Below, one piece after another: positions 2,746 through 31,059 of a DNA stretch of 64,000 nucleotides. Each line of letters begins with the position of its first letter. Within the stretch, counting starts at the first letter, position 1. The DNA is from Bacteroidales bacterium. GTDB lineage: Bacteria; Bacteroidota; Bacteroidia; Bacteroidales; UBA7960. A program made the translations under genes and the position numbers. The stretch is taken from the NCBI GenBank assembly GCA_031323845.1, contig JAVIYP010000003.1, positions 11,007-75,006 of the forward strand, read 5' to 3'. The notes under the pieces were generated by a model. The model had not been told where the DNA came from and ran no database searches. It saw only the letters and a list, made by a program, of their open reading frames with translations.

Positions 2746-3792
2746 ATGCACAGGTTTATTAAAACGGTTTTCTATATCATGGCCCTGCCCCTGGCTGTGA
2801 TCCTGTTGATCCTCTTGCATGCTCATCTTACGCTTTATAATCCTCCGCCACAAAAAATACTCCATCAGGAAGTGGACGCAGTGCTGACCAATCATACCGA
2901 TACCTTTGGTCTGATGACCTGGAACCTGGGGTACGCCGGGCTGGGCGACGACATGGATTTCTTCTATGACGGGGGCCGGCAGGTGCGGACCAGCCGTGAA
3001 CGGACTATGGAGAACCTTTCGGCTATCGGGCAATTCATACAGTCGCATCAGCGCCTTGACTTTTTTCTTTTCCAGGAAGCGGACCAGGGATCCCGGAGAT
3101 CCTATCGTATCCACATGCCCGACAGTATTTCCCGGGTGCTGCCTGATGCCCATCTGGCTTTCGGCAAAAACTATGACGTCCGCTTTGTTCCTGTGCCCTG
3201 GTATGCGCCTATGGGCAGGGTATTGTCGGGCGTGCTGACGGCCAGTCACCCGAAACCTTCCGAAGTCGTGCGTTACAGCTACCCCGGCAGCTATCCCTAC
3301 CCCGGCAGCTTGTTCAACCTGCAACGATGCCTGTTGCTGAGCCGCTACCCCCTGACCAACGGAAAGGAGCTGGTACTGATAAACACCCATAACTCAGCCT
3401 TCGATGACGGTGATTTGCGCAAGAAGCAGATGGATTTTCTAAAAAACCTGTTGCTGGATGAATTTGAGAAAGGCAATTATGTGATCGCCGGCGGTGATTT
3501 TAACCAGTGTCCGCCTGCTTTTAAATCCCAATTTTCAGCAAACGTCTTTAATGATGAAAAGGTGATGTACATCCCCGGCGATTTCCTGGAGGACTGGCAT
3601 TTTGTGTACGACCCGGCAGTGCCGACCAACCGGCGTGTGGTGGCGCCTTATGATGCGGAAACCACCAAAACCACCCTGATCGATTTTTTCATCATGTCGC
3701 CAAACATCAAACCCCTCAGTGTTAAAGGGGTGCATCTTGGGTTCCGCCACAGCGATCACAACCCGGTGCTTTCCGAATTTGTATTGCTATGA
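2746..3792 (+). CDS. Endonuclease/exonuclease/phosphatase (EEP) family protein with an N-terminal membrane anchor
   Basis: It has a hydrophobic N-terminus (FYIMALPLAVILLILL), a C-terminal SDHNPV catalytic-His motif and a GGDFN motif, both typical of the EEP fold. Confidence 0.7.
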   Translation: MHRFIKTVFYIMALPLAVILLILLHAHLTLYNPPPQKILHQEVDAVLTNHTDTFGLMTWNLGYAGLGDDMDFFYDGGRQVRTSRERTMENLSAIGQFIQSHQRLDFFLFQEADQGSRRSYRIHMPDSISRVLPDAHLAFGKNYDVRFVPVPWYAPMGRVLSGVLTASHPKPSEVVRYSYPGSYPYPGSLFNLQRCLLLSRYPLTNGKELVLINTHNSAFDDGDLRKKQMDFLKNLLLDEFEKGNYVIAGGDFNQCPPAFKSQFSANVFNDEKVMYIPGDFLEDWHFVYDPAVPTNRRVVAPYDAETTKTTLIDFFIMSPNIKPLSVKGVHLGFRHSDHNPVLSEFVLL

Positions 3793-3905
3793 AAACAGAT
3801 AGTGCCGCTCGCATGCAGGCTTTTTATACCAGGGAAAATGATTAAAAACATAAAAATCCTCAAAAACAATCAACATCAGTTATCAATAAGTATAACCTGA
3901 AGCAT

Positions 3906-4730
3906 ATGAAACAATACAACGAAACTTTTCAGCGGTTCTGGGACACCTACAGCAGTCAGAACCCTTCGGCCAAACGCATCCACGCACTTTTCACCACGCT
4001 TGGTGAGGAGGTCGTGCATGACCATATTGCGTTGCGTACCTTCAACGACCCGAGGATGAATATCGATGTGGTGGCCAAAGTGTTTACCGACAACGGTTAT
4101 GAAGCCCGGGGTACTTACGACTTTAAGGCCAAGAAAGTCTTTGGCAAACACTTCGAACATAAAACCGACCCTGAGGCTCCGAAGGTGTTCATCAGCGAGT
4201 TGCTCCTGGAGCAATTCAGCGACTTCCTCCGGCAAACGGTCAATGAAAAGCTCGACAGCCTTCCTGATGAAGCTTACCGCGACCCCATGCTGGTGTTTGG
4301 AGGCAGTATCTGGGGCGAAATATCGCTGGATACCTACAACAAGCTTCGTGAAGAGAGTGAGTATGCTGCCTGGACGCTGGTGTACGGTTACAGGGCCAAT
4401 CATTTTGCCATTAAGGTGAATGCACTGAAAAATTTCGGCAGTTTACAGGATGTTAATGCTTTTATTAAAGACAACGGTTATCTGATGAATACCTCTTCGG
4501 GGAATGAGATCTACGGAGCGCCTGAAGAATTGCTGGAGCAGTCGGCCACAAGAGCCGAAATACGGGAAGTGCGTTTCACCGACGGAATGCATAAGATACC
4601 GTCCTGTTTTTATGAATTCACGCTGAGGTATCCAGATGCCGACGGGCTTTTATATCCGGGTTTCAAAGCGGCCAATGCCGACAAGATCTTTGAAAGCACC
4701 AATTTTTACCGGGCCGGAGAGGCGATGTAA
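3906..4730 (+). CDS. DUF1338 (YdcJ/HglS-like) family protein, putative 2-oxoadipate dioxygenase/decarboxylase
   Basis: The N-terminal VHDHIALRTF motif and the 274-aa length fit short DUF1338 members. The next gene starts 22 nt downstream on the same strand. Confidence 0.6.
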   Translation: MKQYNETFQRFWDTYSSQNPSAKRIHALFTTLGEEVVHDHIALRTFNDPRMNIDVVAKVFTDNGYEARGTYDFKAKKVFGKHFEHKTDPEAPKVFISELLLEQFSDFLRQTVNEKLDSLPDEAYRDPMLVFGGSIWGEISLDTYNKLREESEYAAWTLVYGYRANHFAIKVNALKNFGSLQDVNAFIKDNGYLMNTSSGNEIYGAPEELLEQSATRAEIREVRFTDGMHKIPSCFYEFTLRYPDADGLLYPGFKAANADKIFESTNFYRAGEAM

Positions 4731-4752: not shown

Positions 4753-7692
4753 ATGAACAACACGGAATCGGGCATTGCCTTTGACCGCCTGAGGGATCAG
4801 CTGGAAGGCGATTTGTTTCTTGATTATAGCTGGCGCCTGATGTACGCCACGGATGCTTCTGTGTTCAAGGAGCTTCCCGTCGGGGTCTGCCGTCCGGCAA
4901 ATGAAAGCGACCTGGAAAAGATTCTTGCATTTTGCCGCGAACACAAATTGCCGGTAATACCGCGTACTGCCGGCACATCGCTGGCAGGACAGGTGGTTGG
5001 ACACGGCCTTGTGGTTGATTTCTCTCGCTACATGAACGAGATCCTGGAGTTGAATGTCGCAGAAAGGTGGGTCAGGGTTCAACCGGGTGTCATCCTCGAT
5101 GACCTCAACCGCTATCTGGCTCCCCACGGCCTGTTTTTTGCACCGGAAACATCGACAAGCAACCGTTGCATGATTGCAGGGATGGTCGCCAACAATTCCT
5201 GCGGTTCGCATTCGCTGGTTTATGGCAGTACTCGCGACCATACTCTCGAAATCAAAGCCATGCTTTACGATGGAAGCACGGCAGTGTTTGGTGACACGGA
5301 TGCGGATACTTTCCAGAAAAAGTGTGTGGGCAGCAAGCTGGAAAACAAGATTTACAGCGGGCTCTTCGAGATGCTTTCCAAAAAGGAGAACAGGGAAGAG
5401 ATCGTCAGGAACTATCCGGACCCTGGCATTAAAAGAAGAAACACAGGTTATGCGCTTGACCTGCTGTTAAAAGCCAATGTGTTTGGCGGCGAAGAGGCGT
5501 TCAACATGTGCAGGCTTTTGTGCGGTGCTGAGGGCACCCTGGCCTTTTATACCGAGATCAAGCTGAACCTGGTGCCTTTGCCTCCGCCGGAAACCGCGCT
5601 TTTGTGCGTCCATCTGGATACGGTTGAAGACGCCTTGCAGGCAAACCTGATCGCACTGAAATACAAGCCGGTGGCAGTGGAGCTGATCGACAAGGTGATC
5701 CTGGATTGCACCAAAGCCAACATAGGTCAGCGTAAAAACCGTTTTTTCCTGGAGGGAGACCCCGGCGCTATCCTGGTGGTGGAGTTTGCTTGCGACACAA
5801 GCAGCGAAGTTGATGAACTGGCAGGCGGTCTGGAGGCTCACCTCCGCCGGGAGGCCCTTGGCTTTCACTACCCTCTTTTGCGCGGCGGCGACATAAACAA
5901 GGTTTGGAACCTGCGCAAGGCCGGACTGGGCTTGCTGTCGAACATGCCGGGAGATGCCAAACCCGTTGCCGTTATTGAAGACAATGCCGTGCATGTTGAG
6001 GTCCTGCCCATGTTTATCAAGGAAGTGCTGCAGCTTCTGGATAAGCTCAGTCTGAAATGTGTGTTCTTTGCCCATATCGGCACCGGAGAAATTCACATTC
6101 GTCCGATAGTGAACCTCAAGAGCAGGGCTGATGTGGAACGTTTTTACCAGGTGGCCGAGGGTACTGCGCACCTGGTAAAAAAATACAAGGGGTCGCTCAG
6201 TGGCGAGCACGGCGACGGACGGTTGAGAGCCGGCTTCATTCCGCTCGTTATCGGTGAAAAGAACTATGAGCTGTTACGGGAAGTTAAAAAGCTGTGGGAT
6301 CCGCTGAATATTATGAACCCCGGTAAGATCATCGACCCTCCCTCCATGAAGACCTCGCTGCGCTACCTGCCGGGACAGCCTGAAAAAAAGCTCACCACCT
6401 ATTTCAACTACGACAAGACGCTCGGCTTTTTAAGGGCTGTGGAGCAATGCAATGGCTCGGGCGATTGCCGGAAGCCCCCTGCCGCAGGCGGCGTTATGTG
6501 CCCTTCATACCATGCAACCCTCAACGAGTTCGACAGCACAAGGGGCCGGGCAAACCTGCTGCGCGAATTCGTCACCAATTCATCAAAGAAAAACCCGTTT
6601 GACCATAAAGAGTTAATTGACGTACTCGACCTCTGCCTCTCATGCAAGGGCTGCAAGTCGGAATGCCCTTCGAGCGTGGATGTCGGAAAATACAAAGCCG
6701 AAACGCTGCAGCACTATTATGATGCCAACGGTACGCCGTTTGGCGCCAGGGTTACCGGAGCCTATGCCAAACTGAACAAGCTGGGAAGCCTTACGCCGCA
6801 GTTGTTTAATTTCATGGCCACTCAAAGGCTGAGCAGTGCACTGATAAAACGCATGCTCGGTTTTGCAAAGCAGCGAAGCCTGCCGTTGCTGCACCGGCAT
6901 AGTCTGAGGAAGTGGGCTCGAAAACAGCTGCCCGCATTAAACCGGAAAAACGGTTCAGGCAAAATGGTATACCTGTTTTGTGACGAGTTTACCAACTTCA
7001 ATGACACCCAAACGGGCATCCATGCGGTGCTTTTGCTCCATCACCTGGGTTACCGGGTAGAAATTCCCGTGCACGACGAAAGCGGCCGTACCTACCTTTC
7101 GAAAGGCTTGCTGAAAAAAGCCAAGAAGGTGATCGGGAATAACATCCGGCAGCTTTCGGGACTGGTAAGTGCCGAAACGCCTTTGGTCGGCATTGAGCCT
7201 TCTGCCATTCTCGGCTTCCGCGATGAATATCTTGAGCTGGCTGATGCCGGCTTGCTGGAAGCAGCGCAGGCCTTATCCGAAAATGCCTTCACCATTGAAG
7301 AGTTTATTGTTAAAGCTCATGAAAATGGTGAGATAGATGCGGGATTATTCACTAAAGCGAATAGAAAAATATACCTGCACGGCCATTGCCACCAGAAAGC
7401 GCTGTCATCGATTGACTATGGCCATAAGATGCTTTCGATACCTTCAGGAACGGAGGTAAGGAATATTGACTGCGGATGTTGCGGGATGGCCGGTGCTTTT
7501 GGCTATGAAAAGGATCATTATGAGATCAGCATGAAGATAGGTGAGCTGTCGCTGTTTCCAGCGGTCCGGCAGGCCGAAGCCGACGCACTTATCGTGGCCG
7601 CTGGCACAAGCTGTCGCCACCAAATTAAAGATGGTACCGGCCGCGAAGCCCTTCACCCTGCCGATGCCCTTTACCATTGCCTGGTCCTTTGA
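4753..7692 (+). CDS. FAD-linked oxidase fused to Fe-S/CCG domains (YdiJ-like, putative D-2-hydroxyacid dehydrogenase)
   Basis: The N-terminal region has an FAD-binding PCMH-type motif (PRTAGTSLAGQ). It also has the 4Fe-4S motif CLSCKGCKSECPS and a C-terminal Cys-rich CCG-like CGCCGMAG. The 979-aa fusion architecture matches E. coli YdiJ. Confidence 0.8.
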   Translation: MNNTESGIAFDRLRDQLEGDLFLDYSWRLMYATDASVFKELPVGVCRPANESDLEKILAFCREHKLPVIPRTAGTSLAGQVVGHGLVVDFSRYMNEILELNVAERWVRVQPGVILDDLNRYLAPHGLFFAPETSTSNRCMIAGMVANNSCGSHSLVYGSTRDHTLEIKAMLYDGSTAVFGDTDADTFQKKCVGSKLENKIYSGLFEMLSKKENREEIVRNYPDPGIKRRNTGYALDLLLKANVFGGEEAFNMCRLLCGAEGTLAFYTEIKLNLVPLPPPETALLCVHLDTVEDALQANLIALKYKPVAVELIDKVILDCTKANIGQRKNRFFLEGDPGAILVVEFACDTSSEVDELAGGLEAHLRREALGFHYPLLRGGDINKVWNLRKAGLGLLSNMPGDAKPVAVIEDNAVHVEVLPMFIKEVLQLLDKLSLKCVFFAHIGTGEIHIRPIVNLKSRADVERFYQVAEGTAHLVKKYKGSLSGEHGDGRLRAGFIPLVIGEKNYELLREVKKLWDPLNIMNPGKIIDPPSMKTSLRYLPGQPEKKLTTYFNYDKTLGFLRAVEQCNGSGDCRKPPAAGGVMCPSYHATLNEFDSTRGRANLLREFVTNSSKKNPFDHKELIDVLDLCLSCKGCKSECPSSVDVGKYKAETLQHYYDANGTPFGARVTGAYAKLNKLGSLTPQLFNFMATQRLSSALIKRMLGFAKQRSLPLLHRHSLRKWARKQLPALNRKNGSGKMVYLFCDEFTNFNDTQTGIHAVLLLHHLGYRVEIPVHDESGRTYLSKGLLKKAKKVIGNNIRQLSGLVSAETPLVGIEPSAILGFRDEYLELADAGLLEAAQALSENAFTIEEFIVKAHENGEIDAGLFTKANRKIYLHGHCHQKALSSIDYGHKMLSIPSGTEVRNIDCGCCGMAGAFGYEKDHYEISMKIGELSLFPAVRQAEADALIVAAGTSCRHQIKDGTGREALHPADALYHCLVL

Positions 7693-7702
7693 TGATGCCA
7701 TC

Positions 7703-7741
7703 AAAAAAAATGGCTTGCCGGATCCGGCAAGCCATTTTTTT
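7703..7741. terminator. Bidirectional intrinsic terminator between convergent genes
   Basis: The sequence is A8-TGGCTTGCCGG-AT-CCGGCAAGCCA-T7, an 11-bp GC-rich stem flanked by A and T runs. It lies between the YdiJ-like stop (7692) and the rpsA stop (7756). Confidence 0.85.
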
Positions 7742-7755
7742 CAAGCAAAAAAGCC

Positions 7756-10314
7756 TTAGTCTTCTTTCTGTTCCTCTGTTGAGGAATCAGCAGACTCGTC
7801 TGCCTTCTTTTCCTCATCTTCTTTTTCAGCAGCTTTTTTTGCCGTTTTTTTGGCGGTCTTTTTAACCGCTTTCTTCTCAGATGCAGCCGCATCGTCGTCC
7901 TCTGCCTTTGCCTTTTTAGCAGCTGTGGCCTTTGGCTTTTCTGCCGGCTTTTCTGCAGCCTCTTTGTCTTCCTCTTTTGCCTTCTCTTCTTTGGATGCAG
8001 GCTCTTCCTTCACAACCTCAGCTGCAGCGGCTTTTTCTTTCTCCTTCTTATCTTCCTTAACCGGCGCTTCCTTCTCAGCCTCATCTTTTTTGGCTTTTTC
8101 GGCAGCGGCTTTCTCCTCAAGCTTTTTCAAAGCCTCCTCTTTTTTAGCCTCCTGAACGGTTTTCTCAGACTTCTCTATCTTTGACTTCAGGTTTGCCAAA
8201 ACATCAAGGTCACCAAGCGTGGTTTTTTCAAGACTGTCTTTCATCTTCTTGACCACCTTCTTGGTAGCCTGCTCCTTGGCCTTTTGCTCAGAAACCTCTG
8301 AAGCACGCTCGGCATATTTTATATCCTGGTAAACCTTGGTGTGGGAAACGACGATCTTCTTGCTCTCTTTGTTGAACTCAATGACTTTAAAGTCAAGCGT
8401 TTCGTCCATCTTGGCAGTGGATCCGTCTTCCTTTACTACATGCCTTGTCGGGGCAAAGCCCTCAACGCCGTAGGGAAGGGCCACAATGACTCCCTTGTCG
8501 GAAGTGCCTACAATGGTACCCTGGTGGACGGAATCAATGGTAAACACCGACTCAAACACCTCCCACGGGTTCTCTTCCAGCTGTTTGTGTCCAAGGCTCA
8601 GACGGCGGTTTTCTTTGTCAACATCCAGGACAACCACCTCTATGCTCTCACCGATCTTGGTGAACTCTGCAGGATGCTTGATCTTTTTGCTCCAGCTAAG
8701 ATCGCTGATGTGGATCAGTCCGTCAACGCCTTCTTCGAGTTCTACAAAGATGCCGAAGTTGGTAAAGTTCCTGACGGTTGCCGTGGTTTTGCTTCCCACC
8801 GCATACTTTTCTTCAATATCTGACCAGGGATCCGGGATCAGCTGTTTGATGCCGAGTGACATCTTTCTCTCTTCACGGTCGAGCGTAAGGATCACGGCCT
8901 CCACTTCATCACCCACTTTCAGGAAGTCCTGTGCTGTGCGCAGATGCTGTGACCACGACATTTCCGATACGTGAATGAGGCCTTCAACTCCTGATGCAAT
9001 CTCAATAAAGGCGCCATAATCTGCAATAACTACCACCTTGCCGGTGACTTTGTCGCCCACTTTAAGGTTTGGATCAAGCGAATCCCACGGATGCGGTGTA
9101 AGCTGCTTGAGGCCCAGAGCGATGCGCTTCTTTTGCTCATCAAAGTCAAGAATAACCACGTTGATTTTCTCATCGAGCTTGACAATCTCTTCCGGATGGT
9201 TGATGCGTCCCCAGGAAAGGTCGGTGATGTGGATCAAACCGTCGACACCGCCAAGGTCAACAAACACACCGTAAGAGGTGATGTTTTTGACCGTTCCTTC
9301 CAGGATCTGACCTTTTTCAAGCTTGGCAATGATCTCAGCTTTCTGGATTTCAAGCTCTGCCTCAATCAGTGCCTTGTGGGAAACGACCACGTTTTTGTAT
9401 TCGTGATTGATCTTAACCACTTTGAAATCCATGGTTTTCCCAACATAAATATCATAATCGCGAATCGGTTTCACGTCAATTTGTGATCCCGGTAAAAACG
9501 CTTCAATACCGAAAACGTCAACGATAAGACCACCTTTGGTACGGCACTTAACAAAGCCCTGGATGATCTCATCTTTTTCTTTTGCTTCGTTGATGCGCTC
9601 CCATGAACGCAGGGTGCGCGCTTTTTTGTGCGACAACACCAGCTGTCCGCTGCTGTCTTCCTGGCTTTCAACGTAAACTTCTATTTTGTCGCCAATCTTC
9701 AGGTCGGGGTTGTACCTCAGTTCTGCAGCCGGCAAGATGCCATCGGACTTATATCCAATGTTAACGACGATCTCGCGCGTGTTTTTCGACACCACGGTGC
9801 CGTCAATAACTTCACCTTCACCGATAGACTTCAGCGTCTCCTCGTAAATGTTTTCGAGGCGTTGACGCTCTTCTGACGAATAAAGGTCTAGCTTTTTGTT
9901 CACTGCTTCCCAGTCGAAATCACCGGGCTCCTGCAGTTCAGGAACTGTAGTCTGGATTTCCTCTGAAGGTGTTTCTTCCCCAGGGGTTGTTTGTTCCTCT
10001 TCAACGGGGGGTTCTGCGGTGGTTTCAGCTAAGGGCGCTTCGGTTTCTGCTTCAGGAGAGCTTTCCGTTTCAGGTATAGCGTCTGCTTCTGCTTTAACTG
10101 AAGTGTCTTCAGCCTGCTCTCCGGCTACTTCGGCTTGTGGCGACTCCGGTTCTGCAGGGGTTTCTTCCTGCTCTTCCGTTTCAGGTGCTTGTGCTTCCTG
10201 CGGATCATCATCCGCTTTCTTTTCCTGTGAAGCCTTGGGGTCGTCTGCCTGATCCCGGGTTTCCTCTACCGGCTTTTCCTCCGGATTGGCGGTGTTTTTT
10301 TGTTCTTCTGACAT
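7756..10314 (-). CDS. rpsA: 30S ribosomal protein S1 with long low-complexity N- and C-terminal extensions
   Basis: S1/OB repeats recur, for example GTVKNITSYGVFVDLGGVDGLIHITDLSW, GKVVVIADYGAFIEIASGVEGLIHVSEMSW and ATVRNFTNFGIFVELEEGVDGLIHISDLSW. There is a ~130-aa acidic E/P/T-rich N-terminus and a ~190-aa K/E/A-rich C-terminus. Confidence 0.9.
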   Translation of the reverse strand: MSEEQKNTANPEEKPVEETRDQADDPKASQEKKADDDPQEAQAPETEEQEETPAEPESPQAEVAGEQAEDTSVKAEADAIPETESSPEAETEAPLAETTAEPPVEEEQTTPGEETPSEEIQTTVPELQEPGDFDWEAVNKKLDLYSSEERQRLENIYEETLKSIGEGEVIDGTVVSKNTREIVVNIGYKSDGILPAAELRYNPDLKIGDKIEVYVESQEDSSGQLVLSHKKARTLRSWERINEAKEKDEIIQGFVKCRTKGGLIVDVFGIEAFLPGSQIDVKPIRDYDIYVGKTMDFKVVKINHEYKNVVVSHKALIEAELEIQKAEIIAKLEKGQILEGTVKNITSYGVFVDLGGVDGLIHITDLSWGRINHPEEIVKLDEKINVVILDFDEQKKRIALGLKQLTPHPWDSLDPNLKVGDKVTGKVVVIADYGAFIEIASGVEGLIHVSEMSWSQHLRTAQDFLKVGDEVEAVILTLDREERKMSLGIKQLIPDPWSDIEEKYAVGSKTTATVRNFTNFGIFVELEEGVDGLIHISDLSWSKKIKHPAEFTKIGESIEVVVLDVDKENRRLSLGHKQLEENPWEVFESVFTIDSVHQGTIVGTSDKGVIVALPYGVEGFAPTRHVVKEDGSTAKMDETLDFKVIEFNKESKKIVVSHTKVYQDIKYAERASEVSEQKAKEQATKKVVKKMKDSLEKTTLGDLDVLANLKSKIEKSEKTVQEAKKEEALKKLEEKAAAEKAKKDEAEKEAPVKEDKKEKEKAAAAEVVKEEPASKEEKAKEEDKEAAEKPAEKPKATAAKKAKAEDDDAAASEKKAVKKTAKKTAKKAAEKEDEEKKADESADSSTEEQKED

Positions 10315-22891: not shown

Positions 22892-23599
22892 CTACAAAAG
22901 CCCGTTCGCGGTGTTCCACTGGATACAAAGCGCCAGGGCTGCCGTCTCGGTTCTTAAACGGTGAGCCCCCATGCTTATTGCCTTAAAACCACGATCCTGG
23001 GCCGCTGCAATTTCCGCTGCTGTAAAATCTCCTTCCGGCCCGACAAGTACCAGGGTGTTCCTGCCCGGCTCGCAGCTTTCTGACGTGCTGAACTTTTCGC
23101 CGCCGGCACAATGGGCGATCAGCGCAACTTCCGGCAATGGCTGACTGATAAACTCCGCCAGTGTATGCGCCGGGTTCAGCTTCGGCAGGTAAGCCCGGAG
23201 CGATTGTTTCATGGCCGCCACCATTATTTTTTCCAGCCGATGGGTTTTAAGCACACGCCGTTCGCTCTTTTCACAGATCAAAGGTGTGATTTCGTCCACC
23301 CCGCATTCCGTTGCCTTCTCCAGAAACCACTCAAAACGGTCGATGTTTTTGGTGGGTGCTACTGCAATATGAAGGTGAAAAGGCCTTTTTCCGAAGCCTT
23401 CCTGCCTGTGAACGATGGTTGCGGTAGTTTCCGCCGGGTGTACCTCAAGAAGGTGTGCCCTGCACCAGGTACCCCTTCCGTCAACAATACCGATCTCATC
23501 CCCGGGCTTCATACGCAACACCCGTGTGCAATGCCTGCTTTCATCGCCATCAAGGGTAATCACATCCCCGCTCAGATCCTTAACATAGAAAAGATGCAT
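22892..23599 (-). CDS. rsmE: 16S rRNA (uracil1498-N3)-methyltransferase
   Basis: It has a PUA-like N-terminus with the DGDESRHCTRVLRMKPGD motif and a SPOUT C-terminal domain with LVLVGPEGDFTAAE. Confidence 0.85.
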   Translation of the reverse strand: MHLFYVKDLSGDVITLDGDESRHCTRVLRMKPGDEIGIVDGRGTWCRAHLLEVHPAETTATIVHRQEGFGKRPFHLHIAVAPTKNIDRFEWFLEKATECGVDEITPLICEKSERRVLKTHRLEKIMVAAMKQSLRAYLPKLNPAHTLAEFISQPLPEVALIAHCAGGEKFSTSESCEPGRNTLVLVGPEGDFTAAEIAAAQDRGFKAISMGAHRLRTETAALALCIQWNTANGLL

Positions 23600-23609
23600 G
23601 ATGCTCCGG

Positions 23610-24737
23610 TTATATATTATTCTCTGACTGCAACAAACCTTCTGCGTAAAGCTCCCGCAGCACGATCTCCGTCATTTCGCTCTGGAATGGAAACTCGTAC
23701 CGCACATCCATTACATAGGCCTTGAGCCGCATCTTCAAAAATGAGCCTTTGGGTACAAGCACGTTACTGAATTCCACCATGATGGGTTTGTTCAGGTAAA
23801 CATATTTCGACACCTGTGCGGCCTCAGTGGCTATGCGCCTCACATGTTTGGTGTCAATGCCCAGTGGAAGGAACAGCTCGGCCACCACCTGGCAGTTGTT
23901 TTCACCAAAATTTGCGTTTGAAATGGACTGGTTCATCATTTCTGAATTCGGAATGGTTACCACACTGTCGTCAGGCGTAACCACACGGGTTGACCTGAGT
24001 CCGATCTCAAGCACCTCTCCGTAGTACTTTCCGGATTCAATTTTATCACCGATCTGAAACGGTTTGTCCACAAGGATCATCAGACCCCCGAAAATATTTT
24101 TGAGGAAATCCTGTGAAGCGAAACCTATGGCCACACCAATAGAGGCAAAGAAAGCGAATACGGTTTCAACAGGCGGCTGCAGGATAAGGGTGATGATGAT
24201 ATACACCACGAATGACCACCCGATGATCTTTACCAGGGGCATGATACGCCTTATAGTGATCTTGTACCTTGGATGCCGGAGGGCAAACAGTGAAAAAATA
24301 CCTGCGATGGCCTTTATAACGAAGTATCCTGCCAGGAGAAAAACCACCGTCCATAAAATTTTGCTCAGCGAAATGGCACTCCTCAAATCCGGTGGCTGGG
24401 TTATTTCGTCACGCAGACGTGGCGACCCGTTTCTGCCGGCTTCCGCCAGTTCCCCGTCGCCCGCCTCATAGTCGCTGTCGGGCAGTTTTTCTTTATCGCC
24501 GTTCGCTTCTTCAGCCGGCTGATCAGGCTTTTGATTTCCGGCGTTTGTGCCGGTGTCTGCCGGTAACACATCCGAAGTCATATTGACAGAAAGGGTATCA
24601 TCAGCCACCGAAGCCCGGCTGAACAATTGAGCGGTGTGCAGGCAGAACAGCATGCACAGCAACAAAGACAGCATCATGGCCGGCACTCTTTTGCCGGAAC
24701 TTTTTCCTATCATGAAACAAGTTGTTTCGGTCTTCAT
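23610..24737 (-). CDS. Mechanosensitive ion channel (MscS) family protein
   Basis: It has a signal/TM N-terminus, TM helices, and the MscS beta-domain motif GDKIESGKYYGEVLEIGLRSTRVVTPDDSVVTIPNSEM. Confidence 0.85.
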   Translation of the reverse strand: MKTETTCFMIGKSSGKRVPAMMLSLLLCMLFCLHTAQLFSRASVADDTLSVNMTSDVLPADTGTNAGNQKPDQPAEEANGDKEKLPDSDYEAGDGELAEAGRNGSPRLRDEITQPPDLRSAISLSKILWTVVFLLAGYFVIKAIAGIFSLFALRHPRYKITIRRIMPLVKIIGWSFVVYIIITLILQPPVETVFAFFASIGVAIGFASQDFLKNIFGGLMILVDKPFQIGDKIESGKYYGEVLEIGLRSTRVVTPDDSVVTIPNSEMMNQSISNANFGENNCQVVAELFLPLGIDTKHVRRIATEAAQVSKYVYLNKPIMVEFSNVLVPKGSFLKMRLKAYVMDVRYEFPFQSEMTEIVLRELYAEGLLQSENNI

Positions 24738-24767
24738 GATCTTATATAATTAGTTGCGTGTTATGTT

Positions 24768-27700
24768 TCAGTATATCAGATTCTTATCAAGCAATAGCGC
24801 CAGGCTTTGCCGGTACAGCAGGGGATGGATGCTGAACATGCCGTTGTTCTGTGTGATGATGCCGCGGTCCTTCAAACGCATCATCATCATAAATGCCTGT
24901 GCCTTACCTGTATTCATGATGTGTGCAAGCTCCTCTTCATTCAGGATCTCATGCAGTACAAGCGCGTGCAGCCCGAAGATGACCTCATCGGGCAGGTTGT
25001 AGATAAAACTCAGGTCAAGCGTGTCGAGCGAGTTCATGTACACCACATTTTCCTCCACTTTACTGCTGCTGTGCAACCAGAGCTGAAGGGCAAAGGAGAT
25101 GTTCGACTGTGACAGACCATGTATTTTTTCAAAAAACTTTTCTCTCAGATGTAGTTGTTGTTCTTCCTCCGGCTTTTTGAGGAAGTTTCGGAGTTGCTGA
25201 TCTTCTTTTGAAGGAAGAAAATGCAGTTTGTAGCCGCTGGCATTATGCCTGAGCATGATGATCTTCCGGACTTTCTCTGTTTCAAGGCTTTTCATTTTGA
25301 TGAGCTGGGGGAAATAGCCGAACATACCGATCGCCTTGTCAAGAAAGGTGGCGGCATACAATCCGCAGCTGCACATCCAGAACACCTGTTTGCTTGTGGC
25401 ACTGATGATCTCAAAAAGACGTTTCAGCAGTTGAAATCCCGCCGGCTGCCTCATGTAGAATAAATGCAGCTTGTCAACAAAAAGTACAAAAGGTGCGTTC
25501 TCCTCAACAAAAGCAAGGAACTCATCATAACCGGCAAAAGCCTGACCTCTCAAACTGTTTCCCAATAATTCAAAAAGCTGTTCTTCAGACTTCAGGCGTT
25601 TTTCAGGCAGGCATTGATAATACGAAGTGTCATCTTTCAGTGTTTCTGCAGAGAACATGTGCACAAAGGTGCTGATCCCGCTGCCTTTTTCTCCGTAAAT
25701 CAGGGTTGCGGTAAATGAGCCCTCCTGCCATTTTTTGTAGGCATTGATGAGCATGTCCTTTTCTGTTTTCCTCGGAAAATAAAAAGCTGCATCGTCCAGC
25801 GGTTCATTGACAAACAGCCTCCGGTAAACAAAGGGCAGCTTTTGTATCCTGTCGTGATCACTGGCCAGAAAGTCCGACACTTCTATGGAAATGTCTTTCG
25901 AAAGCTTTTGCAGTCCCACGTAAGAACGCAGGACATTAATCATGGAGATCGACTTTTTCAGGCCCGCCCTGAAGAATACACGGCTTTTTTGCAGCGCGGT
26001 TTTTAAGACGGTTTTTATGGCAATGAGCACACGCTCCCTGTTTTTCAGGGCTTTTGTCCGCAGGATCCGGTATCTGATTTTTTCGACATGCGAATTGTCC
26101 GTGAGTTTTAGAAGTGCATCGTAGAGTTGACTGACGGTGTCGTCCACATCCTGTTGTATGGCCTCTATAAAATCGGTAAACCTTGCCGACAGTTCTTCAT
26201 AGGTGTCAAGGGCTCTCTGTATCCCTGCTTTGGCTTCGGAAGCCAGTTCCTCCAGACCTGTGTCCTTTTGCTTCTCAGGCATGAGTAAAGCCGACTCCAC
26301 ATTAAACAGCACCATACGGCCGAGGTCCTGAAAACGCTCATCCAGGCTGTTCAGCTCCCCGATGCTTTTCATCCTGCACTGGATGATTGATTTGTTAAGG
26401 CCTCCGGCAATTTCAAATTCAATCAGCCGCCGCAGCGATATCCCTTCAAGTGCCTTATCTGCATAGGCCTTTCCGGGGTCAAAATCGCGTATCAATATCC
26501 GCTTCCTCGATTGAAGCGACAGCGCCTCACAAAGCTCGTCCTTAACACCGGTGATAAGCTCGGGAAACTCCTGCGCCACCATGCTTCGGCTCACCTCAGG
26601 AATGATGATGTTGTGTAAATTTTTTCCGGCACTATACTTAAGAGTCTGAAGCTCTTTAGTCAACGTGTCGGGATCGCTCCCGTGGATGTCTTTTTGCGAT
26701 GCTGTAAGAAAGCGTTTTATGCGCAGCATTGCCTGGCTTACCGCTTTTTTCTTATCCTGGAGCCTGTTTTGAAAAACAAGGTTGATCAGCGCAGCATTGC
26801 CGGTCAGGATGTAGGCCTCCTGGTTGAACTTCCAGTCGTCGGCCAGAACGAAAAGGGTGTTTAACCTGCGGTTAACAGCAGTTACGTACCTCCTGCGGAT
26901 TTTTTTTCGCCGGTGTTTGCGGTAAACCTCCGGACGTAATACGGCGGGCGACTCAAGTGTGCCAGCAATTTCAACCTGTTGTTCAAACAGTTTGTCAGTT
27001 GTGCGCAGTGCTTCCTTCAGGGACGGCCTGAGCTCTCTCCGGGCGGCTTCAATCTTTTCTTTGGTGGCATGAATGGCCGGGATGAGCTCCTCCCTGAACG
27101 TGCTGGTTACCTCTGCCTTTTGCTTGTTACGGTTGATGAGGTCCATAATGAGCCTGAAAAACCGCTCATCAGCCTGCCAGAGTTCGTTGGCCAGCAGTGT
27201 CAGGGTCTTCATGGCGTCATCGGCAACAGGTGCAAAGAGTGAGAACAGCCTGTTCTCATAGTAACGAAGCGTTAAGGAGCGCGCCGGGATCTTTTGTCTC
27301 CAAACCGGCGGTTGTTTTTCCTTTTTTCCAAGTTTTGTCCTGACCCACTTTCCCAACAGGTAATATCGCCGGTGAAGCGCATAAGAGCCGCGTTTCAGCG
27401 CCTTTATAAACACCGTGGAGCGAGAATCGCCCGGCAATTTCCGAAAGCGCTCCTCTGCCTGTGCGGTAAACCAAAAGGCTTCCATGTCGTGACAAAATGC
27501 AGCAATCTTGTCATCAAAATCTGAGAATAAAGTCTCCGGGGTGTGTTTTTCACGATGGCTCATCCAGCTTTCCAGCAAGGCCAGGATGCTTTTCCTGTGC
27601 TCCAGGTGGTCATTTATGAAACCTGTCTCCGTGCCGGGTGACCGGTAGTCTTCGAGTTTGTCAATCAGGTGTGTTGCTGACTCTTCGTATGCCTCAAGCA

Positions 27701-27803
27701 ATGTTATCAGCGCTTTGAACCTATGGTCCAAAGGCTTCAGCAATGTGCCCGGAAGAAGATTATGCAGCTGCTCTTTGTGGGCTTTCAGCGTTTCCTGTAT
27801 CAT
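24768..27803 (-). CDS. Hypothetical 1011-aa protein with a long helical N-terminal region, a degenerate Orc1/Cdc6-like AAA+ module and a C-terminal winged-helix-like domain
   Basis: TLIYGEKGSGISTFV is P-loop-like but has Ile where the Lys is expected. FVLFVDKLHLF is Walker B-like but has Lys where the Glu is expected. The C-terminal NEEELAHIMNTGKAQAFMMMMRLKDRGIITQNNGMF looks like a wHTH. I recognise no motif in the first ~650 aa. Confidence 0.5.
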   Translation of the reverse strand: MIQETLKAHKEQLHNLLPGTLLKPLDHRFKALITLLEAYEESATHLIDKLEDYRSPGTETGFINDHLEHRKSILALLESWMSHREKHTPETLFSDFDDKIAAFCHDMEAFWFTAQAEERFRKLPGDSRSTVFIKALKRGSYALHRRYYLLGKWVRTKLGKKEKQPPVWRQKIPARSLTLRYYENRLFSLFAPVADDAMKTLTLLANELWQADERFFRLIMDLINRNKQKAEVTSTFREELIPAIHATKEKIEAARRELRPSLKEALRTTDKLFEQQVEIAGTLESPAVLRPEVYRKHRRKKIRRRYVTAVNRRLNTLFVLADDWKFNQEAYILTGNAALINLVFQNRLQDKKKAVSQAMLRIKRFLTASQKDIHGSDPDTLTKELQTLKYSAGKNLHNIIIPEVSRSMVAQEFPELITGVKDELCEALSLQSRKRILIRDFDPGKAYADKALEGISLRRLIEFEIAGGLNKSIIQCRMKSIGELNSLDERFQDLGRMVLFNVESALLMPEKQKDTGLEELASEAKAGIQRALDTYEELSARFTDFIEAIQQDVDDTVSQLYDALLKLTDNSHVEKIRYRILRTKALKNRERVLIAIKTVLKTALQKSRVFFRAGLKKSISMINVLRSYVGLQKLSKDISIEVSDFLASDHDRIQKLPFVYRRLFVNEPLDDAAFYFPRKTEKDMLINAYKKWQEGSFTATLIYGEKGSGISTFVHMFSAETLKDDTSYYQCLPEKRLKSEEQLFELLGNSLRGQAFAGYDEFLAFVEENAPFVLFVDKLHLFYMRQPAGFQLLKRLFEIISATSKQVFWMCSCGLYAATFLDKAIGMFGYFPQLIKMKSLETEKVRKIIMLRHNASGYKLHFLPSKEDQQLRNFLKKPEEEQQLHLREKFFEKIHGLSQSNISFALQLWLHSSSKVEENVVYMNSLDTLDLSFIYNLPDEVIFGLHALVLHEILNEEELAHIMNTGKAQAFMMMMRLKDRGIITQNNGMFSIHPLLYRQSLALLLDKNLIY

Positions 27804-28031: not shown

Positions 28032-29351
28032 TTATTTTTCGACTATGGCTTCCAGCGGATACCTGCGCTTCGACCACCACATGATGCCGCTGCCGATCAG
28101 TAAGCTGATGATGGAGATGGTGAAAGCTGTGGTAAATCCCCAGATCTCATAGAACACAACCCCGATAACCGGTGCAAAAACAGCACGGATGGCCGTAAGC
28201 CCAAGGTGTATTGATTGATACATCCCGGCTTCTTCGGGTGTGCAGAAGTAGGCTGACCCTATGCTCCAGCTGAGCGCCATGGTGGCGGCAAAAACACTGT
28301 GAAACAAAATGTAAAAGATCATGGTGTGGTAAAACGTGATGTCCCAGAACACAACATAGCTGTCAATATACTGTGTGAGGATCAGGGTAAACAAATACAA
28401 CGCCATGGCCAGGAACGACACTATGGAAAACTGCCGGGGATCAATGCGCCCGATAAGCCTGCCGAAGTAAGGCAGCATAAGGATGGCCAGCAGGTTGTAA
28501 GCATTTCGGTAAAAGGCAACACTGGAGTAGTTGAGCCCCAGACCGAACTCCCAGAACAGGATCATCACCGTAAAGGAGCTCATAAAGCCAAAACCGTAAA
28601 ACATGAATCCGGCCTGAAAATGGCGGTAAGGAACGTTCCTGATCAGTATCGCCTTCATCTCATTGACCGATTGTTTTATTCCTTCCCACACCGAATATCG
28701 TTTTTCATCAGGGATGCTTTTGTCCTGGTACGGAATGAGCGAGAGGAGAGAGATGGAAAGCATTCCCAGCAACGCTGCCACGGGGAAGATATACACAAAA
28801 ATGTAATGATTGGCATCCAGCGCCCAACCATAGGCAAAGGTCGTGATCATCAGCACCACCTTGTGTGCTGTGGTGGCTATACTATAAAGCCTGCCGAAGT
28901 TTTGGTGCGCGTAATTGTTTTTTAAGAAGAGGTTAATGCTTGGAAAAACAACCGGGTTGGCCAGGAAATATATCAGGAATATGGCCAGAAATATATAGTG
29001 GTAGATCGAGTCGCCACCCAGTTGTTCCGGACTGCGTGGAAACAGAAACAGCAGCAGCAGGGGCAGACGGGTAATTAGCGCCGTTCTCCGCAGCAGCCTT
29101 TTCTTGTTTTTTATCCTTTTCAGGAAGGTGTTAAAGAATACCAGCAATAAAAAAACCAGTGTGGCAAACTGAAACAGCATGCTTACCTGGTAGCTGGAAC
29201 CCATCAGGCTCTTTACAAAAACAAATTCGTTGAGTGCAATCAGACCGGCCAGTATGCCTTCAATGACCGAATAGGAAAAGTGCAGGGCAAAGGTTTTCCG
29301 CTCCCTGTTATCGAGTTGTGACAGACGAAATATATCTTTTCCCAAAGGCAT
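28032..29351 (-). CDS. MFS transporter
   Basis: It has about 12 hydrophobic segments in two halves. I prefer the ATG at 29351 (MPLGKDIF) over the GTG at 29450, because a -7 box lies at 29378-29385 inside the longer ORF. Confidence 0.7.
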   Translation of the reverse strand: MPLGKDIFRLSQLDNRERKTFALHFSYSVIEGILAGLIALNEFVFVKSLMGSSYQVSMLFQFATLVFLLLVFFNTFLKRIKNKKRLLRRTALITRLPLLLLFLFPRSPEQLGGDSIYHYIFLAIFLIYFLANPVVFPSINLFLKNNYAHQNFGRLYSIATTAHKVVLMITTFAYGWALDANHYIFVYIFPVAALLGMLSISLLSLIPYQDKSIPDEKRYSVWEGIKQSVNEMKAILIRNVPYRHFQAGFMFYGFGFMSSFTVMILFWEFGLGLNYSSVAFYRNAYNLLAILMLPYFGRLIGRIDPRQFSIVSFLAMALYLFTLILTQYIDSYVVFWDITFYHTMIFYILFHSVFAATMALSWSIGSAYFCTPEEAGMYQSIHLGLTAIRAVFAPVIGVVFYEIWGFTTAFTISIISLLIGSGIMWWSKRRYPLEAIVEK

Positions 29352-29377
29352 CTTGCAACAACTTATGGTTGACCCTG

Positions 29378-29385
29378 CAAAGTTA
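29378..29385 (-). promoter_or_regulatory. -7 promoter box TAACTTTG upstream of the MFS gene
   Basis: The reverse complement of CAAAGTTA matches TAnnTTTG. It lies 26 nt upstream of the ATG at 29351. Confidence 0.45.
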
Positions 29386-29467
29386 CACGTCTGAGTCAGG
29401 ATTTGATGGAATTCCGGCTCAGGGCATTCAAAAAAACACTTTTTCAGCACACAGGCGCATGATCATG

Positions 29468-29532
29468 GAAGTCGGAGGCCGGAAAATTATTGTTGAATCG
29501 TTTATTTGTTGAATCGTTTGATCGTTGGTTGG
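29468..29532 (-). repeat. Mosaic element fragment (TTCTGAC-type and AAACGATT-type blocks, inverted)
   Basis: GGAAGTCGGAGGCCGGAAAATTATTGTTGAATCGTTTATTTGTTGAATCGTTTGATCGTTGGTTGG is collinear with the reverse complement of 22735-22816 but has fewer repeat units. Confidence 0.8.
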
Positions 29533-29646
29533 GCTGCCGGCATCCTGCGAGCTTGCTGCTTCATGCAAAACAAAGGAAGTAATGAAGATGTTTCAGGATA
29601 TTTAAAAAAAAGCGTATTTTTATGGGATTGCAAAAATGGAAAAACT

Positions 29647-31059
29647 ATGAAAAAACTATGCTTCTTATTAATGGTCATTGCTCTCGCTTCCTGCAGCATG
29701 CCGGGTCCCGGAACGGTAACGGTCACGGGGGTTGTTGAAAACCCGACAGGCACGGAGGTAGAGGTCTTTTACTATAAGGATTTCATTACCAACTCCATGG
29801 AAAAGCTTGTTGTGTCTCTCGATGAACACAATGCCTTCTCCGCTACCCTGCCTCTGACGCAAGCTGAATTCGTGTACGTCAGCATTCCGCGGCGCACCTT
29901 CATGCTGTATTTGAAGCCGGGTGCAAAAACGCACATGTTGTTTGATGCCTCCGACCCGGAAAACATCCCTGTTGTCAGCGGTGATTTTGAAAAGGAAAAC
30001 AGCTTCTTTCTCTCTTACCGCATGCTTGTCGGACAGAAACACTCGCATTCCGATGTTTTTTCGATGATGCAGGAAGCTGAAGAAGCCCTGGAGTTTAAGG
30101 CGTATGTGCAAGGTATTTACGACGAACGAAAGCAATTTTTAACGGAACATCCCTTATATGCTGAACTTGACCGGGATTTTGTCCGTCATTTCGAACTGGA
30201 CATCCTGTATCAAAAGTATTTCTATCTGATGCAGTATGCTTCTGTGCTGGAGTTCCTGTTTGAACCCGATGTCATGCCGGAGTTAACAGATGAGTTTTTT
30301 GCTTTTCTTGATGATGAGAACCTGTTCAGCGACAAACATACCCTTTCACGGCAGTATTACAACTTCCTGAACCATTACCTGCGTTACAAAATGGCCATGC
30401 TTGCCGATGACGACGATGACAGATCGCGCCAGGTCACCCAGTTTGATCTTGCCACAGAGCTGTTTTCCGGCAAAAGTCGTGATCTTGTGCTTGCTGATGT
30501 GGTGATTTCGGCGCTCAGTTTCGGTGATTTTGAGGAAGCGATCGGTCTTTACCGGCGCTTTTCTGACATGCGTCCGTCAGGTGATGTTGCCGCGATTGTC
30601 CTGGCAGAATATACGGCCCATCAGGCATTGGCTCCCGGCAAGCCTGCGCCGGCCTTCACGCTGACTGACATTGACGGACAGGAAGTGTCGCTGGATGATT
30701 TTCTTGGGAAGGTTGTATATCTTGACTTCTGGGCAAGCTGGTGCGGACCTTGCCTGCAACAGATTCCGCATGCCAAAGAGCTGAAGCAGCGTATGGCCGG
30801 CCGTGATGACCTTGTGTTTTTGTACATTTCCGTAGATACCGACCAGCAGGCCTGGCGCAACATGGTTGCCGACCGCGACATCCAGGGCGTGCACCTCAAC
30901 GTGCCCGGCTTCAGCCATGAGGTCCCGCAAAGTTACAACCTGAAAGGCGTACCAACATTTTACCTGATAGGACGGGATGGAAAAATAGCTGATAACCGAC
31001 CGCCCAGGCCAAGCCAGGAACGTATCGATGAGGTATTGATGGCCGCCCTGGAACAATAA
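29647..31059 (+). CDS. TlpA-like thiol:disulfide oxidoreductase lipoprotein with a large N-terminal domain
   Basis: It has the lipoprotein signal MKKLCFLLMVIALASC and a C-terminal thioredoxin fold with WASWCGPC. I chose the start at 29647 rather than the track start at 29506. Confidence 0.8.
   Translation: MKKLCFLLMVIALASCSMPGPGTVTVTGVVENPTGTEVEVFYYKDFITNSMEKLVVSLDEHNAFSATLPLTQAEFVYVSIPRRTFMLYLKPGAKTHMLFDASDPENIPVVSGDFEKENSFFLSYRMLVGQKHSHSDVFSMMQEAEEALEFKAYVQGIYDERKQFLTEHPLYAELDRDFVRHFELDILYQKYFYLMQYASVLEFLFEPDVMPELTDEFFAFLDDENLFSDKHTLSRQYYNFLNHYLRYKMAMLADDDDDRSRQVTQFDLATELFSGKSRDLVLADVVISALSFGDFEEAIGLYRRFSDMRPSGDVAAIVLAEYTAHQALAPGKPAPAFTLTDIDGQEVSLDDFLGKVVYLDFWASWCGPCLQQIPHAKELKQRMAGRDDLVFLYISVDTDQQAWRNMVADRDIQGVHLNVPGFSHEVPQSYNLKGVPTFYLIGRDGKIADNRPPRPSQERIDEVLMAALEQ

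Follow-up and report, generated by a model that had tools for sequence, protein, structure and literature searches.

Channels of the MscS family are regarded as self-sufficient tension-gated valves whose known regulation runs through domains fused to the channel; indeed, regulatory additions to the MscS core are well known. Here we describe a 64,000-nucleotide (nt) stretch of DNA from a Bacteroidales bacterium (GCA_031323845.1, contig JAVIYP010000003.1, positions 11,007 to 75,006 of the forward strand; the whole stretch is hereafter called the window), in which an MscS-family channel gene directly follows a large gene for a 1011-amino-acid (aa) soluble protein, P0001, with a C-terminal module (C-module) predicted to resemble the Orc1/Cdc6 ATPases. 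The channel gene shares the MscS core (transmembrane segment TM3, beta, and alpha-beta domains) with the MscK, MscM, YnaI, and bCNG channels, whereas the candidate regulator is here a separate soluble AAA+-like polypeptide encoded upstream, and not a fused domain. We consider, with a rough probability of 0.55, that the large protein is a cytoplasmic subunit of the downstream channel that regulates or scaffolds it and does not hydrolyse ATP.

Among described proteins, archaeal Orc1/Cdc6 and eukaryotic ORC/Cdc6 (1fnn, 2v1u, 2qby, 7jgr, 7tjj, 8s0e) have, like the C-module, an AAA+ base, a lid, and a winged helix, and the P0001 C-module is matched to them with a Foldseek probability of 1.00, yet with a sequence identity of only 11-16%. 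Furthermore, P0001 differs from them in lacking the Walker A Lys, and with it the canonical GxxGxGK[ST], as well as the second Walker B acid, in having an acidic winged helix and a 630-residue N-terminal helical domain (N-domain), and in being a bacterial protein encoded with a membrane channel, no replication genes being found nearby at the loci examined. PAB2304 of Pyrococcus abyssi (2qen; ATPase_2, PF01637) likewise continues from a Walker-type P-loop domain into helical and winged-helix parts (Foldseek E 1.8e-5, target-normalised TM-score 0.47), whereas P0001 gives no PF01637 match and has a degenerate site, a large N-domain, and a channel partner.

The AAA_16/STAND motif style (GE-x-G-x-G-[K]-[ST] and hhhh-D-D-L-H) has its counterpart in GEKGSGIST and VDKLH of P0001. 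However, compared with the AAA_16/STAND regulators (MalT, LuxR-type), P0001 falls below the Pfam cut-off and has lost the Walker A Lys; unlike STAND NTPases, it ends at the winged helix, with no C-terminal sensor repeat domain, and carries its large extra domain at the N-terminus. Non-catalytic AAA+ subunits, such as clamp-loader delta/delta', Orc2/Orc3, and NSF D2, use degenerate sites for structure or switching, and the RCK/KTN gating rings (TrkA, KtrA, KefC) are cytoplasmic ligand-binding assemblies that control membrane transport proteins. Both offer a functional analogy only, and the Rossmann fold of RCK/KTN is not homologous to the module of this family.

The two genes and the spacer between them are located as follows:

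24768..27803, minus strand: large gene for the 1011-aa soluble protein P0001, the stand-alone long form (open reading frame list, translation)
24738..24767, minus strand: spacer of 30 nt between the large gene and the MscS gene (coordinates)
23610..24737, minus strand: partner MscS-family channel gene, 375 aa (PF00924, 74 bits)

The 1011-aa reading frame described in the initial annotation, an earlier reading of the DNA letters alone, is present on the minus strand, and its product has no TM segment, the highest 19-residue Kyte-Doolittle mean being 1.19. A genome scan for related loci with a 12-sequence alignment as query returned 80 named loci, of which 74 could be evaluated for the downstream neighbor. 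In 72 of these, from Bacteroidales, Cytophagales, Flavobacteriales, Saprospiraceae, and Ignavibacteria, the partner MscS gene lies directly downstream on the same strand. Translational coupling is suggested by 51 of the 72, where at most 10 nt separate the two genes or their reading frames overlap by 1 or 4 nt. An MscS gene was also detected just downstream in four diverged Bacteroidota homologs, in an Acidobacteriota member, and in a relative fused to a Na+/H+ exchanger, while the outer neighbors vary among these paired loci.

In the reverse direction, the partner-type MscS was identified in 37 of 201 sampled genomes of the phylum, with one copy each, and all 30 partner-type loci analyzed (30/30) carry the 3' end of a family gene directly upstream. 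A first-look search of the 2.9-Mb genome of the window gave at most 12 MscS-like candidates, and chance adjacency is therefore negligible. Thus, the link to MscS across Bacteroidota, which had been proposed as a point to check, is far stronger than had been guessed; the pairing is obligate, and the large gene and the MscS gene are best described, from gene order, as a two-gene unit. In the window, a scan for a minus-strand terminator-like site found none in the 30-nt spacer, and the sigma-70 promoter and terminator scan, using a model that does not cover Bacteroidota promoters, gave no excess of sites over shuffled sequence; the promoter that the initial annotation assigned to the MFS gene is putative.

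The channel of the pair is one dedicated MscS subfamily. Its members score E 1e-109 to 1e-164 on the partner profile, against 1e-10 to 1e-29 for other nearby MscS paralogs, and are 45-67% identical across orders, exceeding the conservation of the large protein. The channel of the window belongs to the MscS family (74 bits for PF00924 against a cut-off of 20.2), matches 41 PDB sequences at E <= 1e-3, including MscM, MscK, YnaI, and MscS, and starts with a signal-peptide-like stretch, continues through an acidic, variable linker into TM1-TM3, and ends in the beta and alpha-beta domains. Moreover, conservation is equally high in the cytoplasmic alpha-beta domain (3.56 bits) and in the pore helix TM3 (3.57 bits). 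At many loci, a second, ordinary MscS paralog of about 280-315 aa (E 1e-10 to 1e-29) lies 1-6 kb from the pair, namely at:

L023, L025, L041, L052, L058, L059, L063-L065, L069, L070
L072, L073, L075, L077, L079, L082, L094, L100

The architecture of P0001 was derived from a full-length AlphaFold model, built from an 88-sequence alignment, with a mean predicted local distance difference test score (pLDDT) of 86 and a predicted TM-score (pTM) of 0.67:

25914..27803, minus strand: N-terminal helical domain, residues 1-630 (AlphaFold model)
26889..26927, minus strand: basic patch YRKHRRKKIRRRY, residues 293-305, at the start of an 80-residue helix (sequence)
25884..25913, minus strand: flexible hinge between N-domain and C-module, about residues 631-640 (low pLDDT)
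24771..25883, minus strand: C-module, residues 641-1011, with LPFVYRRLF lead-in, AAA+ base, helical lid, and winged helix (model and Foldseek)
24771..25067, minus strand: C-terminal winged helix, residues 913-1011 (model; weak TrmB, Sta1, and Lrs14 matches)

The C-module is the best-conserved region of the protein (2.3-2.9 bits per column). Its P-loop alpha-beta-alpha core is modeled with strands at 700-704, 727-731, 772-776, 807-814, and 833-836, followed by a helical lid (842-911) and a winged helix (913-1006). Foldseek searches of the PDB placed Orc4, Orc1, and Cdc6 first, followed by the archaeal 1fnn, 2v1u, and 2qby and by PAB2304 (2qen); the top 16 matches are all ORC/Cdc6 or PAB2304, and these matches span about 400 aligned columns at E 3e-6 to 6e-5. 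In Pfam, the best match was the sub-threshold AAA_16 (PF13191; 23.6 bits against a cut-off of 32.6, E 8.3e-5, residues 678-802), and the AAA_22, TrmB, Sta1, and Lrs14 models matched only weakly. The family-alignment profile searched against PDB sequences returned only low-complexity helical and P-loop noise (E >= 0.026), and the fold was consequently assigned from the predicted structure. At this level, the earlier reading of the C-terminal third as an Orc1/Cdc6- or archaeal-ATPase-like AAA+ domain with a winged helix was right.

The N-domain had been described as a helix-rich region free of recognizable motifs, and the same picture emerged from a confident helical model (pLDDT 91.2 and pTM 0.81 when modeled alone), with long helices at 292-371 (the longest), 457-511, 517-566, and 570-629. 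Foldseek gave no fold match in the PDB, the best hits being generic or designed helical bundles at E 0.02, and Pfam holds no model for this domain. Conserved patches in the alignment include Q115, R119, F120, D126, K134, K137, W168, G281-T282-x-E284, and D323-W324. The basic patch noted earlier, YRKHRRKKIRRRY, was located at residues 293-305, and the surrounding residues 285-312 have a net charge of +10 in P0001, with a family mean of +6.2. Residues 626-638 are the sole stretch with pLDDT below 50 in the full-length model and were read as a hinge. The other peptides quoted in the initial annotation are likewise present, TLIYGEKGSGISTFV at residues 699-713, FVLFVDKLHLF at 772-782, MKSLETEKVRKIIMLRHNASG at 837-857, and the winged helix-turn-helix stretch at 955-990.

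The description of P0001 as an orphan did not hold. A word-indexed search returned 36 clusters, of which 34 contain proteins of about 1010 aa (37-54% identity) and two are distant relatives, and an exhaustive phmmer search returned 2556 clusters (at 50% identity) with E <= 1e-3, 553 of them with E <= 1e-30, mostly full-length relatives of about 1000 aa and 24-29% identity; a profile-based word-indexed search added little new, among the matches listed, except relatives fused to AA_permease. The large protein is thus a member of a big unnamed family of Orc1/Cdc6-like ATPase look-alikes, mostly without the catalytic Lys. We defined the family operationally by an LPFVY[QR]RLF lead-in, a GE[KR]GSG-x-[ST][ST] P-loop, an RH-x-x-SGY lid motif, a winged helix that closes the C-terminus with LLYRQ...KN[IL]I[HY], and a directly following MscS gene of the partner type; P0001 has every one of these motifs, and its MscS gene is 30 nt downstream.

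The 80 loci come from Bacteroidales, Tenuifilaceae, Perlabentimonas gracilis, several Fulvivirga species, Flexithrix dorotheae, and Catalinimonas, and furthermore from Cyclobacteriaceae, Flavobacteriales, Saprospiraceae, and Ignavibacteria, and a single family member is from Blastocatellia (Acidobacteriota). The closest relatives of the copy in the window, at L021, L024, L030, L037, and L040 and in JGI sample 3300001336 (L016), derive from metagenome bins of sediments and lakes whose names (CSSed16..., DLM2, ML7, and the like) may indicate soda- or saline-lake samples, a setting where osmotic control would be relevant.

The nucleotide site of the C-module has three recognizable elements:

25668..25694, minus strand: degenerate Walker A, G704-E-K-G-S-G-I710-S-T712, with Ile for Lys (alignments)
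25464..25490, minus strand: Walker B-like strand, F772-VLFV-D777-K778-LH780, with the first acid kept and Lys as the second
25230..25250, minus strand: lid motif, R852-H853-N-A-S856-G857-Y858, in lid helix 842-856 (alignment and model)

The Ile at the Walker A Lys position and the Lys at the second Walker B acid, both pointed out in the initial annotation, were confirmed against relatives with GSGKT and ED/EE. All members of the clade of the window (41 rows, 100% local support in the C-module tree) have GE[KR]GSG-[IVA]-S/T-S/T and V-D-[KR]-L-H, and D-K at Walker B was found solely in this clade. Because both substitutions are conserved clade-wide, P0001 is not a decaying copy; decay was one of the outcomes that could have undone the earlier claim.

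One of the two patterns used in the scan (GEKGSG[IAM]...) is biased to non-Lys members, and Walker A frequencies were instead taken from the phmmer set. Across 185 members, the residue at the Lys site may be I, L, A, K, V, T, R, S, M, Q, H, N, C, or F, and only 23 rows have Lys there; N, D, K, and G are found at the second Walker B position, and Lys together with two acidic Walker B residues occurs in only about 8 of the 185. All basal branches (transporter-fused paralogs, short form, and Acidobacteriota member) retain the Lys, and the 185-member tree requires at least nine switches between Lys and non-Lys states, at least six of them forced by well-supported branches.

The remainder of the pocket is tightly held. 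G704, E705, G707, S708, G709, and [ST]711-712 reach 3.3-4.3 bits, with 2.1 bits for position 710, and in the 88-sequence alignment position 777 is E or D in 88/88 and position 778 is N, K, or D, while R852 and G857 occur in 88/88, H853 in 87/88, and S856 in 86/88. The lid motif R852...Y858 would be positioned like a sensor-2 element in the model. From the freedom of the Lys site and the constraint on the rest of the pocket, we infer that hydrolysis is dispensable for the function of the family and that the pocket is still used, possibly for ligand binding. In the clade of the window, the Lys at Walker B+1 may stand in for the missing Walker A Lys in contacting phosphate: about 42 rows, all devoid of the Walker A Lys, have a basic residue there, against 0/23 rows with it, although this co-occurrence represents only about three independent events. 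K706, the third P-loop residue, was also considered as a substitute and found no support as a general rule, K or R being present there in 16/23 Lys rows and in about 146/162 non-Lys rows.

Variant forms of the module inform on which of its parts the pairing involves. A short form (P0187 type, about 413-447 aa), seen in one well-sampled family, consists of the C-module alone, with a GERGSGKST P-loop and IEGLQ at Walker B, and it directly precedes the partner MscS at L132 (4447..6634) as well as at L131 and L133, where the upstream genes are on the other strand. Since the short form lacks the N-domain and keeps the pairing, the helical N-domain is accessory.

In addition, the genome of the window carries, on another contig (C86, locus L020, 6320..14114), a fused paralog of 1789 aa with an N-terminal AA_permease/SLC12-like transporter followed by the helical, AAA+, and winged-helix module and a canonical GARSSGKSS P-loop (hhalign probability 99.4%, family-profile columns 467-1004). 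A 235-aa MscS-like gene overlaps its stop codon downstream, and a full MscS gene of 556 aa lies divergently upstream. The AA_permease-fused paralog is present in nearly every genome of the genus; the family profile covers such paralogs over nearly its full length, and 9/10 of their loci in related genomes have an MscS-like open reading frame directly downstream. Moreover, P0036 has the module fused to Na_H_Exchanger, and its locus includes an MscS gene and a CitMHS/TrkA_C transporter. Another relative, P0185, gave a weak ATPase_2 match and faint nSTAND3 and NPHP3_N matches.

In the explanation that we favor, the Orc1/Cdc6-like C-terminal core would have lost its ATP-hydrolysing motor function. 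Since the scaffold of the P-loop, the Ser/Thr that coordinates Mg, the first acid of Walker B, and the invariant Arg-His of the lid are retained, the pocket probably still binds a phosphate-bearing ligand. The core would then be a conformational switch or a surface for assembly, with contacts to protein and not to DNA made by its winged helix and the conserved C-terminal helix. The long-helix N-domain is an accessory arm that is missing in some lineages. Since the module is also fused to ion transporters and is still followed there by an MscS-like gene, it seems to link conditions in the cytoplasm to the release of solutes by the channel and, where fused, to their uptake as well, and its role may lie in osmotic or ion homeostasis. 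The earlier suggestion of a scaffold or a switch is a reasonable inference. More tentatively, it is possible that a ring of this pseudo-ATPase, or non-hydrolysing ligand-binding switch, sits under the cytoplasmic cage of its dedicated heptameric MscS and gates or plugs the channel on a cytoplasmic signal, in which case the transporter fusions would tie solute uptake to release as self-contained osmostats, for which no counterpart has been described among MscS channels.

Full-text searches of the literature yielded no account of an AAA+/ORC-like partner for an MscS channel. If our proposal is correct, an obligate, translationally coupled, AAA+-derived partner of one widespread MscS subfamily would add a control layer to bacterial osmotic and ion homeostasis, extended to uptake by the transporter fusions, and nature would here have retained an ATPase fold, throughout a large family, for non-hydrolytic use. 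The component superfamilies are already known, and there is a sizeable chance of a new kind of regulated channel complex; the question is directly testable in cultured carriers of the pair (Fulvivirga spp., Flexithrix dorotheae DSM 6795, and Perlabentimonas gracilis).

Several observations weigh against a regulatory or scaffold subunit. Two loci depart from the pairing: at L037 a radical-SAM/SPASM gene (7298..8407) takes the place of the channel downstream, and at L078 an ADP-ribosylglycohydrolase gene (8112..9545) is inserted between the large gene and its MscS partner. The pair is accessory, occurring in about 18% of the sampled genomes of the phylum and in 2/25 of the genus, a distribution that fits a niche function and leaves room for a conflict system. 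Furthermore, adjacency and translational coupling are also compatible with mere co-regulation or with an assembly factor, and ligand binding by a Lys-less P-loop is an assumption, as the pocket may have only a structural role.

An assembly, targeting, or tethering factor, which would place or assemble the channel heptamer and leave gating uncontrolled, is a doubtful alternative, even if the best of those considered here. The tight translational coupling suits co-assembly, and the elongated 630-residue helical domain with its conserved basic patch, the degenerate ATPase site, and the strongly conserved cytoplasmic domain of the channel could all belong to such a factor. However, the short form keeps the pairing without the helical arm, the module is also fused to transporters that need no factor of this kind, and the well-conserved pocket residues favor a ligand-dependent function over a passive tether.

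It is improbable that the large protein is a transcription regulator that binds DNA through its winged helix, senses a signal through its P-loop module, and controls the channel gene. Proteins of the Orc1/Cdc6 type and winged helices like those of TrmB, MarR, and Lrs14 do bind DNA, the weak TrmB, Sta1, and Lrs14 matches and a MarR_2 match in P0036 point in the same direction, and regulators are often encoded beside their targets. Nevertheless, where a basic surface would be expected for DNA binding, the winged helix carries a net acidic charge (-5 in P0001, -1.9 on average in the family) and its recognition helix is nearly uncharged (+0.4 on average), which speaks somewhat against a conserved DNA-binding role, and its conservation peaks in the C-terminal helix (Y997, R998, N1008) and not in the recognition helix. 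Moreover, with stop and start codons that overlap, the two proteins should be made in about the same amounts, an unusual arrangement for a regulator and its target, and a 1000-aa regulator fused behind transporters of 10-12 TM segments would be tethered to the membrane.

STAND- and ORC-like NTPases with membrane effectors are a common theme among defense systems, and the pair was therefore also weighed as an anti-phage or abortive-infection system, in which the NTPase would sense infection and the channel would collapse ion gradients. The spread is indeed patchy (37/201 genomes of the phylum, 2/25 of the genus), and the unit is gained or lost at a fixed site. In PADLOC-DB 2.0, no significant match was found, the best for P0001 being a faint similarity to mad8 (E 0.017) confined to the P-loop, and the channel had no match. 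We give this explanation little credence, since the pair is present in one copy per genome amid housekeeping genes, with lineage-stable synteny (e.g., PAD_porph and GIY-YIG neighbors at three loci), its channel is 45-67% identical across orders, unlike fast-evolving defense effectors, the NTPase site that defense STAND proteins need is degenerate in most members, and the SLC12-like and Na+/H+ transporters to which the module is fused suggest a function in ion physiology.

The least credible explanation, that the two proteins are independent and only co-transcribed in a stress regulon, the AAA+-like one having an unrelated cytoplasmic job, could draw on the same-strand run that the pair forms with rsmE in the window, but is countered by the two-way adjacency (72/74, 30/30) across orders and phyla where all other neighbors differ, by the recurrence of the pattern in the paralogous fused system, and by a partner that is one dedicated MscS subfamily and not any MscS.

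The two genes that flank the pair in the window are the following:

22892..23599, same strand as the pair: rsmE (NF008702, E 3e-80), 10 nt downstream of the MscS gene
28032..29450, minus strand: MFS gene, upstream of the large gene (PF07690)

The coordinates agree with the spacing reported before, with 30 nt to the MscS gene, 10 nt from there to rsmE, and an MFS gene upstream. Neither rsmE nor the MFS gene could be retained as a part of the unit, as they are not conserved as neighbors outside the genus, and the possible MFS link across Bacteroidota raised in the initial annotation was accordingly not sustained. Within the genus, the pair occurs in two of 25 genomes, and G010 resembles the window in its run of channel gene, large gene, and MFS gene. 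Three congeners without the pair show a DUF gene, rsmE, about 1 kb with an opposite-strand SBF-family gene, the MFS gene, and two thioredoxin-like genes; in L139 the site between rsmE and MFS holds a 314-aa SBF-family (sodium/bile acid symporter) gene (3591..4535, plus strand), with a matching gap of about 1 kb in L140 and L141. Judging from these gene orders, the two genes of the pair are acquired or lost together at the site between rsmE and MFS within the genus.

Beside the MFS gene, the window also contains two tandem paralogous genes:

29506..31059, plus strand: first tandem gene, 517 aa
31074..32495, plus strand: second tandem gene, 473 aa

Both have a signal- or lipoprotein-like N-terminal start and a C-terminal thioredoxin-type WASWCGPC, and they adjoin the MFS gene in congeners too.

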